42,602 bases of DNA. Origin: a virus. The stretch lies in the UHGV virus genome UHGV-0263785; one strand, given 5' to 3'. The position numbers were made by a program, and so were the translations under genes. The notes beneath the pieces are model-generated. The model saw nothing but the letters and a program-made list of their open reading frames with translations. It made no database searches and was not told the origin of the DNA. Shown one piece after another: positions 27,127-31,503 of the stretch (the stretch's first letter is position 1; each line of letters opens with the position of its first letter).

Positions 27127-27615
27127 ATGGCTACCAACCCAAGAGAGCACGCCCGGCGAGTGCTGGACACGTTCTGGTGCGGGCGTGGTTTCCCTGTTGA
27201 TCCAGCGAAAATTGCTCACGACATGGGATTAGATGTTTTTATTACCGATCTTCCTGGGAAAGTTTCTGGCGCACTGATTAAACAAAAAGATCAAGATCCA
27301 GCGATCTTTCTAAACAGTGATGACAACAAAGTTCGTCAACGTTTTTCATGTGGGCATGAGTTGGGGCATTACATCGCCCGGCAAGCATCGCATAGCGATG
27401 AATATGAGTACGTTGATTTACGTGGCGAAACCGCAAGCGCCGGAACGCATCCTGATGAAATTTTTGCAAACAAGTTCGCAGCAGAACTTCTGATGCCGGT
27501 AGATGAGGTCAGAAAACTGCACGCTGACGGTCAACCAAGTTATATAATGGCGCATTATTTTGGCGTATCTGACGATGCGATGACTTATCGTTTAAAGAAC
27601 TTGAGGTTGGGGTAA
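27127..27615 (+). CDS. ImmA/IrrE-family zinc metallopeptidase (COG2856-like)
   Basis: 162 aa; HEXXH motif (HELGHY) followed by ..DEIFANKFAAELLMP.. characteristic of ImmA/IrrE peptidases; GGAGGAG RBS before the ATG. Confidence 0.7.
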   Translation: MATNPREHARRVLDTFWCGRGFPVDPAKIAHDMGLDVFITDLPGKVSGALIKQKDQDPAIFLNSDDNKVRQRFSCGHELGHYIARQASHSDEYEYVDLRGETASAGTHPDEIFANKFAAELLMPVDEVRKLHADGQPSYIMAHYFGVSDDAMTYRLKNLRLG

Positions 27616-27624
27616 CGCTTTAAA

Positions 27625-28230
27625 ATGCCATCGGATGACGATTTTAACAGCCGTTTCAAACAGGAAGTAGCACGCAGACTGAAGGATTCCCTCAACCTAC
27701 ACCGTCAGTTAGCAGAAGAGGTTGAGCCGGAGGACGATGAAACTCCGGTTCAGTCTCCTGACGAAGCTTCACCTCAGCCAAAGGTTTCGCACGCCCCCAA
27801 AAAAACGGCTGTCCGTATTCGCGGAATAGCCAGAAAAAGAGCTGCCGAAGCTCGCAAAATGGCTGTAGCTGCGTCTAGCAAAAGAATTCCAACTGCTACA
27901 CCCTCTCAACAAGTCACCCGTACTGAGAGTAAAATCTTGACCGAGTTCACATCTGTGAAACAGGTGAATTCACTTGATACCGAGCATGAGCGCAAACAAC
28001 TCAACAACAAAGATTTTGAAGCAGAAATCGCTCTAAAAAAACGATACGGGAAATGGTTCCTGATTATCCTTGCTTTCCAACTTCTGATAATGAATGGTGT
28101 ATTTATTGCCGACGGCGCAGGTAAGCTGGAATTTGAGGATTTAACACTACAGTTGTACATGGGCGGTACTTTGACAGAGGTATTCGGCCTCGTGCTGGTC
28201 GTGACAAAATACCTTTTTAAACGCAAGTAA
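27625..28230 (+). CDS. Membrane protein with charged, low-complexity N-terminal region and two C-terminal TM helices; partner of the ImmA-like peptidase
   Basis: 201 aa; starts 9 bp after the peptidase stop; C-terminus ..WFLIILAFQLLIMNGVFIADGAG..LTEVFGLVLVVTKYLFKRK. Confidence 0.55.
   Translation: MPSDDDFNSRFKQEVARRLKDSLNLHRQLAEEVEPEDDETPVQSPDEASPQPKVSHAPKKTAVRIRGIARKRAAEARKMAVAASSKRIPTATPSQQVTRTESKILTEFTSVKQVNSLDTEHERKQLNNKDFEAEIALKKRYGKWFLIILAFQLLIMNGVFIADGAGKLEFEDLTLQLYMGGTLTEVFGLVLVVTKYLFKRK
28152..28230 (+). repeat. Direct repeat copy 1 (the last ~26 codons of the membrane-protein gene)
   Basis: About 79 bp, roughly 90% identical to 31575-31653; homology ends exactly at the stop codon. 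Confidence 0.8.
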
Positions 28231-28244
28231 CTCTCTCGGTCCAA

Positions 28245-28266
28245 CAGTCTTTCGAAGGCCCTGATC
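28245..28266 (+). terminator. Hairpin (aaggccc-tgatca-aagggcctt) 3' of the membrane-protein gene
   Basis: Inverted repeat 15 bp after the stop. Confidence 0.35.
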
Positions 28267-28692
28267 AAAGGGCCTTGATAAATTAGCAGTGCGTTGAAAA
28301 CAGATAGTTATTCCCATCAGTTCCAACGTAATACACATCAAAAAAATCACCATTCTTTTGCTCTAACGTCAACACCTACCCTTAAAAAAATAATTCTCCA
28401 AGAATGAGAAAGTTATTGTGTGTATTAGATAAGATATGAGCTGACACATCTATGGCGTGGAGCCAAATTTAATATGACAGTCCGCTCTGTGCCATAAGCG
28501 GACTGTCAATAAACAGATTCACTTGTAAATCTTGAAGCTATACATATTTACTTTCAATGATAAATAAAAGAACTATCCAAAAATCACTGAGAGCATATTT
28601 TAACTAACCCTCCGCTACTATTAACATAAATTTCACCCAACCATAATTAAATTGATACATATAGCAACTTACCTTGATACGAATCATCTGGG

Positions 28693-29391
28693 TTATATTT
28701 TTCCATATTTTTTTCCGTCAAATCGAATCATGCCAGGATCAAGAAAATTAATTAAATCGATTAACGCGTGCTGTATTCTGATTAGCCTTTCTTTATAAAT
28801 TCCGATATCTCTTGTCATATTTATCACTTCATTGTTTAAATCTAAAAAAAATGGCTCATTGATAAAGCAATTTTCCTTTGTGAAACTGCCGTAACCTATG
28901 CAATCAAATCCAGTATCTGTTGATATCAGCATCTTTTCTGCAATAGCTCTCTGCTCTCCTATGAAAAACATAAAATACTGACCAAAGACGTCTGTTTGGA
29001 TTAATGAGTTAATATTGTTCTGTAATCTAATAAACTCCCTCATTTTTTTATTTTTTTCTAGGCTAAGGTATTGAATGTCTATGCGGGCAGCTTCTGTCCA
29101 TGCAAAAAACTGGGAAAAAAGAAAAACAGTATTGTTGATAACATAATCTTGTTGGCGCTTATTCCCATTATGATAAAACTCTTCAATGAACCCCAATTCT
29201 AATATATTATAAATACGGCTTTGTAAGTCTGAAGCTGAGCGAATTAACGGTTCAATATAGTACTGATGTTTTCTCCTTACATCCAGTGATTCATTGAGCT
29301 TGTTTATTCTATTCTGATTATAAGTAGATATAGCAATAGAGATTATAGCTATTGCACCACTAATAAAGCTTGAAATTAATGCCGTACCCAT
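28693..29391 (-). CDS. Membrane-anchored hypothetical protein (N-terminal TM helix), strongly AT-rich gene
   Basis: 232 aa, ATG start; N-terminus MGTALISSFISGAIAIISIAISTY; base composition clearly lower in GC than the phage backbone. Confidence 0.5.
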   Translation of the reverse strand: MGTALISSFISGAIAIISIAISTYNQNRINKLNESLDVRRKHQYYIEPLIRSASDLQSRIYNILELGFIEEFYHNGNKRQQDYVINNTVFLFSQFFAWTEAARIDIQYLSLEKNKKMREFIRLQNNINSLIQTDVFGQYFMFFIGEQRAIAEKMLISTDTGFDCIGYGSFTKENCFINEPFFLDLNNEVINMTRDIGIYKERLIRIQHALIDLINFLDPGMIRFDGKKYGKI

Positions 29392-29954
29392 CTAAAAGTC
29401 CTTTGATTCTTGCTTGGTTAACAAAATGACATAATTTTATTTAATGCCATAACAACTTAACAATATATCATAATATGATTATTATGGTGTAGCTTGTCGC
29501 ATCTACGCTCCATTACAAACAGATGTAAGATATAACCTATATGTTTTAGCCAGCAAATTCGAAAGCATTCAAAGTAGTCTCATCGAACTCTCGAAACCCT
29601 ATGTCTTCGGGTATAAAATATTTAAATCCATTTGCATAATATCGACTCATGTTTATTATATTCTCCCCATTCACCATTAAGATTTGACATTATTTTCAAC
29701 AATCGGTTATTGCAAGATTGAAATATATTTTTACTTGACACAATATTCCATGTAGCCCAGCGATTCGACTTACCCCCAACTATACGGACAATCTAAATTA
29801 AATCGATGATTTTTTGATACATTCTCCTCTCTCCATTACTTTATGTTTTTGTTCCCCAAAAATACCTTGCTCTCTAAAAAATAATTGTTCTTTAAGTTCA
29901 AAATCGAGATCTACATGAGCGTTAGATACAAAGCTAATATGTTGAAATGTCTTT

Positions 29955-29963
29955 CCCCCCCCC
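29955..29963. repeat. Homopolymeric C9 (G9 on the minus strand) tract
   Basis: Counted directly: ctttccccccccc|ataacgg. Confidence 0.9.
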
Positions 29964-30579
29964 ATAACGGCATTGTTATCTAAACTATGTTACACAAATA
30001 TAATATTACCCTTTCAACGTAATCCAAGAATAAGATTAATGCCATTATATATATCATAAATATGATATTTTGTATATTTTTATCATTTAGCCTTGATTGT
30101 ACTAGGTGTACTCTCAACGAAGTAGGGAAAGTCTGTTCCTCGCTCACAGCTGCCCTTCAGTAAGCGAAAAAATGCCTACTCGGTGCCATATACAGCCATT
30201 GTTATTAACAGCAGGGAATAATTCAAAACTGAAATTAAATATCTACCTTTTACAGTAGAAATAGTTCCTCCAGGACACTATCCATTGCCGGGCACAATCA
30301 CTCGGGGTATAACGATATAAAATATGTTCATGATAGTGCAGGTTCGTATATTAAGTTCAGCAGCGAAAACATGCCTTACAGGTTTCCGGTTTTGGGAGCG
30401 TCGTTACAGGATCCTGCGCATACCGTTCCCATCTGTTGAATTAAAGGTTTCACAGCCTTTGCCGATATCACCTTTTACCTTACCTGTGATGCGTTCAGTG
30501 CTCAGCGTTGTTTACTGTAGCTCTCGGGACTGATTACAGACCGCGTCTTAAAAACCAATCCTTACTCTAAAGGGAATTC

Positions 30580-31503
30580 ATGAGATTAAAATACTCAGTA
30601 CTCTTACTCGCCATTGCCCTTACAGGCTGTGATAACAAAAAAGATGAGATCGGTTGTTCTTCGGAAATAACCCAGTCAGCTCTCATGGATTTATTAAAAA
30701 AATCTGCTTATGAAGGACTCTCTGAACAGGTCGATAAATACCCTGATGTCACTAATCAGACCAAACGAAGCACACTGGACAAGATCAAACTAGCCATCTC
30801 TGAGATCTCCACAACATCAAGTGACACGGGCAGCACAATGAAAACTTGTGAAGGGACCGTGACGATGACTCTATCTGCGAACGAGTACGTCCAGCTTTCA
30901 GATGCTTACAGAAAGAATTTTAATCGTAATCTCGATAAGCAAATGGAAAGCCTGTTTTTGGAGAACAACGCAAACGCCTTTTCAAAACGTATCACCTACA
31001 CCGTGCAGGCGACCGACGATCAGAAAAACGTTTTTGTAAAAACCTCTACTGATAATCCGATATCAGTGGGCGCCGCTTTACTGACATCGCTTTCCATTAT
31101 CACCCCGATCGTTGAGCAGCAGAAAATCCAGCAGGCTAAGGATGCCCAACAGAGTCAAATTGAAGCGGAACAACAGGTGCAACTCAGGGCGCAAGAACAG
31201 GCTAAGTATGAGGCGGAGAAGCAAATAGAGAGACAGGCACAACTTCAGCCGCAAAAAGCTGACAACCTTGATCAGTCCCGAATGGCATTTGCGAATGCCG
31301 ACTCTGATTTGAGTACCGTCTGGAGCAAGTTAACCCCGGCGAAGAAAAAAGATTTGCTGCCTTCTCAGCGTCAGTGGATCAAAACTAAGGATGCTATGTG
31401 CGGTAAAGTTTCAATGCAGGGAACAGATGCTGAAGTCAAGAAAATGGTCGACTGCCAGACGCAAATGACCCTTTCAAGAATCGCTTTCCTCAGAAACCAA
31501 TAA
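30580..31503 (+). CDS. Lipoprotein with central Gln/Glu-rich coiled-coil and C-terminal DUF1311 (LprI-like) domain
   Basis: 307 aa; lipobox (LLAIALTGC|D); C-terminal ..SQRQWIKTKDAMCGKVSMQGTDAEVKKMVDCQTQMTLSRIAFLRNQ fits the DUF1311 pattern (Q..W...RD..C......C....T..R...L). Confidence 0.6.
   Translation: MRLKYSVLLLAIALTGCDNKKDEIGCSSEITQSALMDLLKKSAYEGLSEQVDKYPDVTNQTKRSTLDKIKLAISEISTTSSDTGSTMKTCEGTVTMTLSANEYVQLSDAYRKNFNRNLDKQMESLFLENNANAFSKRITYTVQATDDQKNVFVKTSTDNPISVGAALLTSLSIITPIVEQQKIQQAKDAQQSQIEAEQQVQLRAQEQAKYEAEKQIERQAQLQPQKADNLDQSRMAFANADSDLSTVWSKLTPAKKKDLLPSQRQWIKTKDAMCGKVSMQGTDAEVKKMVDCQTQMTLSRIAFLRNQ

Follow-up and report, generated by a model that had tools for sequence, protein, structure and literature searches.

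Many reverse transcriptase (RT)-nitrilase defence systems carry a membrane partner, and in at least one validated case defence depends on it. RTasTM (PADLOC PDLC03799/PDLC03013) is the 229-amino-acid (aa) "1TM" partner in the RT(UG5-large)-nitrilase + 1TM system of Escherichia coli E101 (Rousset et al. 2022, PMC9122126); this partner is transmembrane (TM) cluster 1858 of Mestre et al. 2022 and is required for E101 defence (PMC9226505). This validated system showed activity at room temperature only. According to the literature, just a minority of UG1/DRT1 and UG5-large RT-nitrilases have such TM proteins beside them. Drt1b (PADLOC PDLC02172) is a TM protein found beside ~18% of drt1/UG1 genes, and a gated channel has been suggested as the role of RT-associated TM proteins (both PMC13275509). 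Here we describe a 232-aa protein encoded by an open reading frame (ORF) in an E. coli prophage, within a 42,602-nucleotide (nt) stretch of viral genome UHGV-0263785 that was analysed as a whole and is hereafter called the window. The original prediction, made from the sequence alone, took the protein for a membrane-anchored orphan and its gene for a candidate abortive-infection (Abi) or superinfection-exclusion gene. Our comparisons place it in a large family that is the RT-less sister of RTasTM.

The orphan label did not survive. The phrog_5606 profile covers the window protein from residue 1 to 232 of 232 (E 7e-163), and its relatives number in the thousands. A profile search of 1.84 billion cluster representatives retrieved at least 1,928 of them at E <= 1e-3 and 424 at E <= 1e-30, while 5.8 billion proteins yielded 290 homologues of constant length (232-270 aa), none with a precomputed Pfam domain and all named either "lysogenic protein" or "hypothetical". 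Among 185,579 species genomes (one genome per species) there are 268 family loci, which span Enterobacterales, Acidobacteriota, Cyanobacteria, Alpha-, Beta- and Gammaproteobacteria, Actinomycetota, Bacteroidales and Firmicutes.

Defence-system prediction, one of the checks that had been proposed, matched the window protein to RTasTM (DRT) in PADLOC with an E-value of 1.8e-5. This match scores 22.4 bits and is confined to residues 71-204, as against 405-539 bits over the full length for true members, and by profile score the window protein is a remote homologue outside RTasTM. All 56 sampled family members match the RTasTM model (best 9.8e-11), and 44 of the 56 match the second RTasTM model. 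The sequence of the E101 1TM partner, taken from Table S2A of Rousset et al. 2022 (PMC9122126), scores 2e-163 on the RTasTM model and so belongs to the same protein family as the models. When our family alignment was compared with this partner by hhalign, a probability of 96.1% was obtained (E 3.7e-9), and comparison of profile with profile, using an 18-sequence partner alignment, gave 96.4% (E 1.4e-9) over 144 columns. Structure prediction agreed with the remote-homology search: in the AlphaFold2 model of the E101 partner (predicted local distance difference test, pLDDT, 87) the order of elements is as in the window protein, with a beta-hairpin included. In the merged alignment 20 positions are conserved in both families, including R59, Y83, T88, Q94, W98, R103, E146, Q147, C164, Y167 and F170. 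Common ancestry and a shared fold with RTasTM, at the level of remote homology, are well supported by these alignments and models. The earlier statement that the soluble domain has no recognisable family motif therefore stands for Pfam and NCBIfam (SLATT and Abi families included), neither of which gave a significant match to the window protein, and falls for PADLOC, where RTasTM is a recognisable relative. Homology to a housekeeping or structural family, which would have spoken against the original prediction, was likewise absent from Pfam and NCBIfam, and the only relative that could be detected is a component of a defence system. A sub-threshold Pfam/NCBIfam match to CNNM covered the TM helix only and was treated as noise, as were weak, isolated matches to Cas3, AbiTi and PDC-M38B.

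No RT or conserved partner lies beside the family genes. A tblastn search with the RT-nitrilase of the RTasTM reference locus, in which the positive control (locus L096) was detected, found no match in the window and none within +/-8 kb of 87 family loci, and no RT is annotated in the window prophage. The ORF does not occupy the position that marks RTasTM, directly downstream of an RT-nitrilase gene and co-oriented with it. Nor did any partner recur when 773 neighbouring ORFs from 81 loci were clustered, the top cluster, of LysR-type regulators, being present at 7 of the 81. Because profile score and RT adjacency both fail, we place the window protein outside RTasTM, in an RT-less sister family of the same architecture.

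The ORF is a real gene on which purifying selection acts. A random 232-codon frame would stay open at the composition of the coding sequence (CDS) with a chance of ~1e-8, stops making up ~7.6% of random codons as calculated from the sequence. The same gene occurs as ORF1 of the Z region of P2-EC58 (CAD54907.1, "putitive lysogenic protein"), where it lies between inverted repeats and is 91.4% identical to the window ORF at the amino acid level. Against this copy the ratio of nonsynonymous to synonymous substitution rates (dN/dS) is 0.25, and the CDS is 94% identical in nucleotide sequence, compared with 82-86% for the non-coding flanks of the surrounding cassette. Of 5,426 complete E. coli genomes, 409 (~8%) carry the gene at >=99% identity, always on the chromosome, and one of these carriers is labelled O25b:H4-ST131. 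In the databases the window protein is WP_000536231.1, a "hypothetical protein". Its strongly atypical base composition, already remarked upon in the original prediction, was confirmed: GC content is 0.32 in the CDS, and 0.305 at third codon positions, versus 0.48 in the whole window, and just 1.7% of 699-nt segments are as AT-rich. The reading as a 232-aa ORF with an N-terminal TM helix and a soluble domain was also upheld by the coordinates, the ATG start, a ribosome-binding site and a single hydrophobic segment (Table 1). Promoter-like sites are no commoner than in shuffled sequences, and the P2-EC58 record places a different promoter ~205-235 nt upstream of the start.

Table 1. Features of the ORF and of the cassette that carries it, in window coordinates.
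Feature	Position	Strand	Basis
CDS, 232 aa; phrog_5606 and "lysogenic protein" family member	28693..29391	-	profile match, homologues
Single predicted N-terminal TM helix, residues ~3-23, with many small-xxx-small spacings of Ser, Gly and Ala	29323..29385	-	Kyte-Doolittle
Conserved helical domain, predicted cytoplasmic, residues ~45-232	28696..29259	-	family alignment; AlphaFold2 pLDDT 87
Ribosome-binding site AAAGGA, 7 nt before ATG	29399..29404	-	sequence; equivalent site annotated in P2-EC58
Candidate sigma-70 promoter TTGTTA-18-TAAAAT	29434..29463	-	consensus match only
Mobile ~1.7-kb cassette made up of the boundary hairpin, the ORF, an upstream region of ~750 nt and a truncated right inverted repeat	28437..30152	.	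megablast, alignment
Hairpin of 13 bp with T-rich tail, terminator-like, downstream of ORF	28475..28508	-	"left inverted repeat" of P2-EC58 Z region
AT-rich conserved upstream region travelling with the gene, stop-interrupted frames	29392..30125	-	alignment with P2-EC58
Truncated P2-EC58 "right inverted repeat" (GGGAAAGTCTGTTCCTCGCTCACAGC...)	30126..30160	+	P2-EC58 homology stops inside

The predicted TM helix is the sole hydrophobic segment of the protein, with a 19-residue Kyte-Doolittle mean of 2.16 where no other position exceeds 1.6, and it contains small-xxx-small spacings at S7-S11-A15 and S18-S22. A hydrophobic N-terminal segment is present in 56 of 56 sampled family members and in 18 of 18 RTasTM proteins. 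Only 3 residues precede the helix and 5 lysines or arginines fall within the 21 residues after it; because of this short N-terminus and the positive charges behind the helix (positive-inside rule), we infer an N-out/C-in topology with the ~200-residue soluble part in the cytoplasm. An exclusion protein acting in the periplasm, one form that the original prediction might have taken, is therefore unlikely. The AlphaFold2 model is confident (pLDDT 87, predicted template modelling score 0.79) and consists of a long helix spanning residues 3-65, which would include both the TM segment and a stalk, followed by a bundle of helices that includes a small beta-hairpin at 155-164. In the conserved domain the alignment contains the invariant family motifs EPLxRxAxDLQSRxYN, (A/S)Q(Y/F)FAWTExxR, GEQRAIGE, CxGYGxF and LQxALIDLxxFLDP. 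Fold searches returned generic helical-bundle matches only, and a sequence search against solved structures gave just a chance match (E 0.82). In two long metagenomic members (P0129 and P0130) the conserved domain is fused to a C-terminal NAL1-like module with a chymotrypsin fold, with a GDSGS motif in P0130; on the thin evidence of two rare fusions, these might fit a modular component of conflict systems.

The ORF lies in a cassette common to the Z region of P2-EC58 (AJ512683) and to E. coli EC-107 (87% identity by megablast), the EC-107 copy (WP_087889723.1) being the same gene, also 91% identical in amino acid sequence, in the same ~1.7-kb cassette. In EC-107 the gene stands antisense between two tail genes of a P2-like prophage, G for fibre assembly and FI for the sheath, and the P2-EC58 copy is likewise flanked by G and FI, whereas the window copy is found in a lambdoid-type early region. 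About 75 nt of the window (28437-28508), with a perfect 10-bp hairpin (13 bp with G-T pairs), are kept directly downstream of gene G in P2, P2-EC58 and EC-107; beyond this boundary the cargo of P2 and that of the window diverge at once. Taken by itself, the window cassette has inverted repeats only as short, chance-level pairs, and the boundary repeat becomes visible just by comparison with P2-EC58, from which the window copy differs in the truncation of its right inverted repeat. Because a P2-type boundary sequence sits inside a lambdoid-type prophage, exchange with the P2 hotspot is indicated, and alignment of the copies shows the cassette to be mobile between the P2 Z/fun slot and the window prophage. 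A 2026 paper on P2/P4 hotspots makes no mention of the gene. A few E. coli genomes (H2, H18, H43) have transposase insertions of the IS1 family within or beside the cassette.

The slot is also that of Fun(Z) of P2 (NP_046777.1), whose cloned gene blocks the growth of T5 (GenBank annotation). This raises the question of whether the ORF could be a non-abortive superinfection-exclusion factor at the inner membrane, blocking DNA entry or an early membrane step without killing the cell, as fun(Z) does against T5. The shared slot and antisense orientation, the predicted inner-membrane anchor and the presence of a single prophage gene with its own expression signals would all suit such a factor. However, homology to Fun(Z) was rejected (hhalign probability 0.06%), the protein is predicted to lie almost entirely in the cytoplasm, just 3 residues being outside, and the family is mostly non-phage and occurs in phyla whose phages differ widely, which is a poor fit to the recognition of a specific injection apparatus. 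We regard this explanation as improbable.

The region that travels upstream of the gene bears on two further explanations. It includes a decayed remnant of ~145 codons (29546-29965, minus strand), and similar stop-interrupted frames are found in P2-EC58. Small ORFs in these 750 nt are not kept as ORFs, and the region has no Pfam match and no Rfam family; P2-EC58 is its only phage match and its E. coli matches are copies of the cassette alone. The remnant has no similarity to the RT-nitrilase or to the sampled neighbours. The ORF might thus be what is left of an incomplete system, alone inert or a leftover, which needs either a partner elsewhere (e.g., the Abi-P2 RT) or the decayed gene upstream. 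A remnant does lie directly upstream on the same strand, its relative RTasTM acts in a two-gene system, and P2-EC58 does encode the Abi-P2 RT in another variable region (PMC9508834). Yet the ORF is kept under purifying selection while the remnant decays, the 87 loci hold neither an RT nor a recurrent neighbour, the short upstream regions of other members are without a remnant, and in the window prophage no RT is annotated for it to partner. An incomplete system is, on balance, quite improbable.

The same long AT-rich leader, conserved and travelling with the gene, could instead silence a membrane toxin, directly or through an antisense RNA, the element then serving as an addiction module that stabilises the cassette or the prophage. 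A small membrane protein and the toxin-antitoxin (TA)-rich neighbourhoods of some relatives are compatible with this. Against it, clustering of neighbours revealed no antitoxin gene and Rfam no known RNA, its size of 232 aa and its large conserved soluble domain set the protein apart from type I toxins, and the IS1 insertions noted above show that the cassette region tolerates disruption in those few genomes. We consider an addiction element very improbable.

Defence genes and mobile elements are frequent, though not universal, in the surroundings of relatives. In a P2-like prophage of Providencia a relative lies beside a DUF2971 gene and an AAA_15 ATPase gene, and in a P2/186-like prophage of Lonsdalea one directly follows the integrase, overlapping its stop codon, and sits beside PARIS. 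Others adjoin SIR2+HerA in a Lysobacteraceae (Xanthomonadaceae-type) genome and an ORC/CDC6-like ATPase gene in Serratia, or are found in a TA-rich region of an acidobacterium, in a small insertion between smp and serB, and as cargo of an integrative conjugative element. In 62 further genomes 124 immediate neighbours were compared with PADLOC, and about a dozen of them matched strongly, including a type I and a type IV restriction enzyme, JukB, Mokosh MkoA/MkoC, PDC-S14, PDC-S37, PbeA, DrmC, Hhe and ZacB. By our estimate, made without a background comparison, this is well above chance.

We tentatively favour a role for the window protein as a standalone, membrane-anchored anti-phage sensor/effector expressed from the prophage, an explanation that in our judgement falls somewhat short of probable. 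The ORF would be a functional, horizontally mobile single-gene module whose product is anchored in the inner membrane and places a helical domain of ~200 residues in the cytoplasm. This domain would detect an infection cue or a conserved ligand through the polar and aromatic core that it has in common with RTasTM (R59, Y83, Q94, W98, R103, E146, Q147). The TM helices, rich in small residues, might then associate and compromise the inner membrane, and the damage would halt phage growth by abortive infection. We hold membrane disruption as the mechanism to be less probable than the defence role itself.

Several observations weigh against a defence role or against its proposed mechanism. The family is carried by 7 of 2.9 million IMG/VR viral contigs, most immediate neighbours of its genes are ordinary, and many members lie among ordinary metabolic genes. 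Synteny is conserved in Acidobacteriaceae and in metagenome-assembled genomes labelled Heliomicrobium, a chromosomal pattern that is unlike the patchy distribution typical of defence genes. Literature searches found no characterisation of the protein or its family and no experimental report. A related UG5-large system from rhizobia operates with no TM protein at all (PMC13436386), and the label "effector" for RTasTM is an assumption in the literature. As to mechanism, the fold matches being generic helical bundles only, the predicted structure gives pore formation no independent support, and a pore made from one TM helix per chain requires oligomerisation. The claim that the context is typical of Abi or exclusion genes thus holds in part: the Z/fun slot, the PARIS and SIR2-HerA neighbours and the homology to RTasTM agree with it, and the many ordinary chromosomal contexts and the few viral contigs do not.

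These observations lend themselves to a different explanation, in which the family is a general, non-defence inner-membrane regulator or stress protein that certain mobile elements have taken up as a lysogenic-conversion gene, and of which RT systems would have recruited a paralogue. Its wide occurrence in chromosomes (the 268 loci in species genomes and the 1,928 or more clusters), its rarity in viral contigs, its mostly ordinary neighbours, and the synteny with hemB and acyl-CoA dehydrogenase or carboxylase genes that is kept in some lineages are all in keeping with a cellular function, and the very strong conservation of the cytoplasmic domain across phyla suggests a conserved cellular ligand. 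The Enterobacterales copies, however, occupy mobile or variable slots (P2 Z/fun, integrase-adjacent, integrative conjugative element, smp-serB insertion), the composition of the window ORF is strongly atypical, defence genes seem over-represented among immediate neighbours, and the one detectable relative comes from a defence system. With these facts on the other side, we think a non-defence function unlikely. In the Acidobacteriaceae (L013, L029, L033, L041, L044 and L075) the gene keeps a place close to hemB (ALAD) and to a gene for acyl-CoA dehydrogenase, PIN and MNT-type TA genes intervening, which suggests stable chromosomal inheritance in that lineage.

The window prophage is integrated beside a tRNA-Leu/Cys/Gly cluster near pgsA-uvrC. 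The ORF is located in an accessory region between Q/nin-like genes and replication genes, as the original prediction of an accessory island had it, and in a slot that is variable: between the ImmA/IrrE and LprI genes it extends over ~28231-30579 in the window versus 2246-5386 at locus L101, and in E. coli APEC20/16 a GIY-YIG nuclease family gene and 3 small hypothetical genes replace the 201-aa gene and the 232-aa cassette. The observation that the gene runs opposite to its neighbours with an upstream region of its own was likewise correct, as it is convergent with the 201-aa gene (27625-28230, plus strand), divergent from an LprI-domain lipoprotein gene (30580-31503, plus strand) and preceded by ~1.2 kb of non-coding DNA.

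On the convergent side, positions 27127-28230 hold a gene for an ImmA/IrrE M78 metallopeptidase (PADLOC capP-like, E 2.4e-25) followed 9 nt later by the 201-aa gene (phrog_5346), whose product has a hydrophobic C-terminus; this operon-like arrangement could be a regulator/effector pair. On the divergent side, the 307-aa lipoprotein (phrog_5094) has a signal peptide with a lipobox-like LTGC, a Q/E-rich coiled region and, at the C-terminus, an LprI (lysozyme-inhibitor) domain; its gene is preceded by ~430 nt that fall outside the cassette. The first 33 nt of this gene (30580-30612) are matched perfectly by the spacer ATGAGATTAAAATACTCAGTACTCTTACTCGCC of type I-E CRISPR (clustered regularly interspaced short palindromic repeats) arrays on the iap-cas2e side; the match was verified in NZ_CP028578.2, and the same blast match is present in at least 7 other E. 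coli genomes. A second annotated CRISPR match, 35 nt long at 100% identity, comes from E. coli JX21CE8 (H82) and falls at ~27333-27367, inside the ImmA/IrrE peptidase gene.

What is new here is a much larger RT-less sister family of RTasTM, for which we provide a confident structural model and the residues that both families conserve. With it comes a naturally occurring one-gene cassette, exchanged between the Z/fun hotspot of P2 and a prophage that ~8% of complete E. coli genomes carry. One could go further and propose that the family is a widespread, self-sufficient one-gene membrane defence module, of which RT-nitrilase systems (UG5-large, perhaps UG1) captured one branch as a killing or arrest device, a scenario that we find rather doubtful. 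If it is true, the standalone protein would reveal the output mechanism of RT-nitrilase systems with TM partners, and a one-gene system would be added to those known, carried by the prophage of the 409 complete E. coli genomes and by P2-like phages. Should the lone protein defend, it would provide a compact new defence gene and a handle on RT-associated TM partners; should it not, this would argue that the TM partner is a regulated accessory and not an autonomous effector. The locus is thus a worthwhile and cheaply testable lead, and not a demonstrated new system.

The standalone protein can be compared with several known systems. It resembles Fun(Z), in its P2-EC58 and EC-107 copies, in being antisense cargo of the slot between G and FI with the same hairpin boundary downstream of G, and as a non-essential lysogenic-conversion gene, and is unlike it in size (232 versus 528 aa). 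The ClyA-family alpha-pore-forming toxins (ClyA, NheA, YaxB, Cry6Aa) recur among the top weak fold matches of the window protein, with which they share an elongated helical bundle and a small beta-hairpin flanked by short helices; none of these fold matches is significant, and the protein is not assigned to that family. Drt1b, which accompanies an RT-nitrilase defence gene and for which a gated channel has been speculated in the literature, is likewise a membrane protein; the Drt1b profile matches 1 of the 56 family members (E 0.005) and not the window protein, so membership does not follow and homology is not demonstrated. The likeness to RTasTM goes furthest: the two are of similar length (232 versus 229 aa), each with one N-terminal TM helix, a stalk helix and a helical soluble domain of ~200 aa, and each is carried as AT-rich cargo in hotspots of phages or satellites. 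They differ in that identity is merely ~20-25%, that the standalone family has its own invariant P48, D55, Q57, S58, N62 and D218-P219, and that it is larger and taxonomically broader (at least 290 versus 29 matches in the same type of search). Above all, the RTasTM gene of the reference locus overlaps the stop codon of its RT-nitrilase gene by 4 nt in a P4-like satellite, whereas the standalone family is found with no RT nearby.

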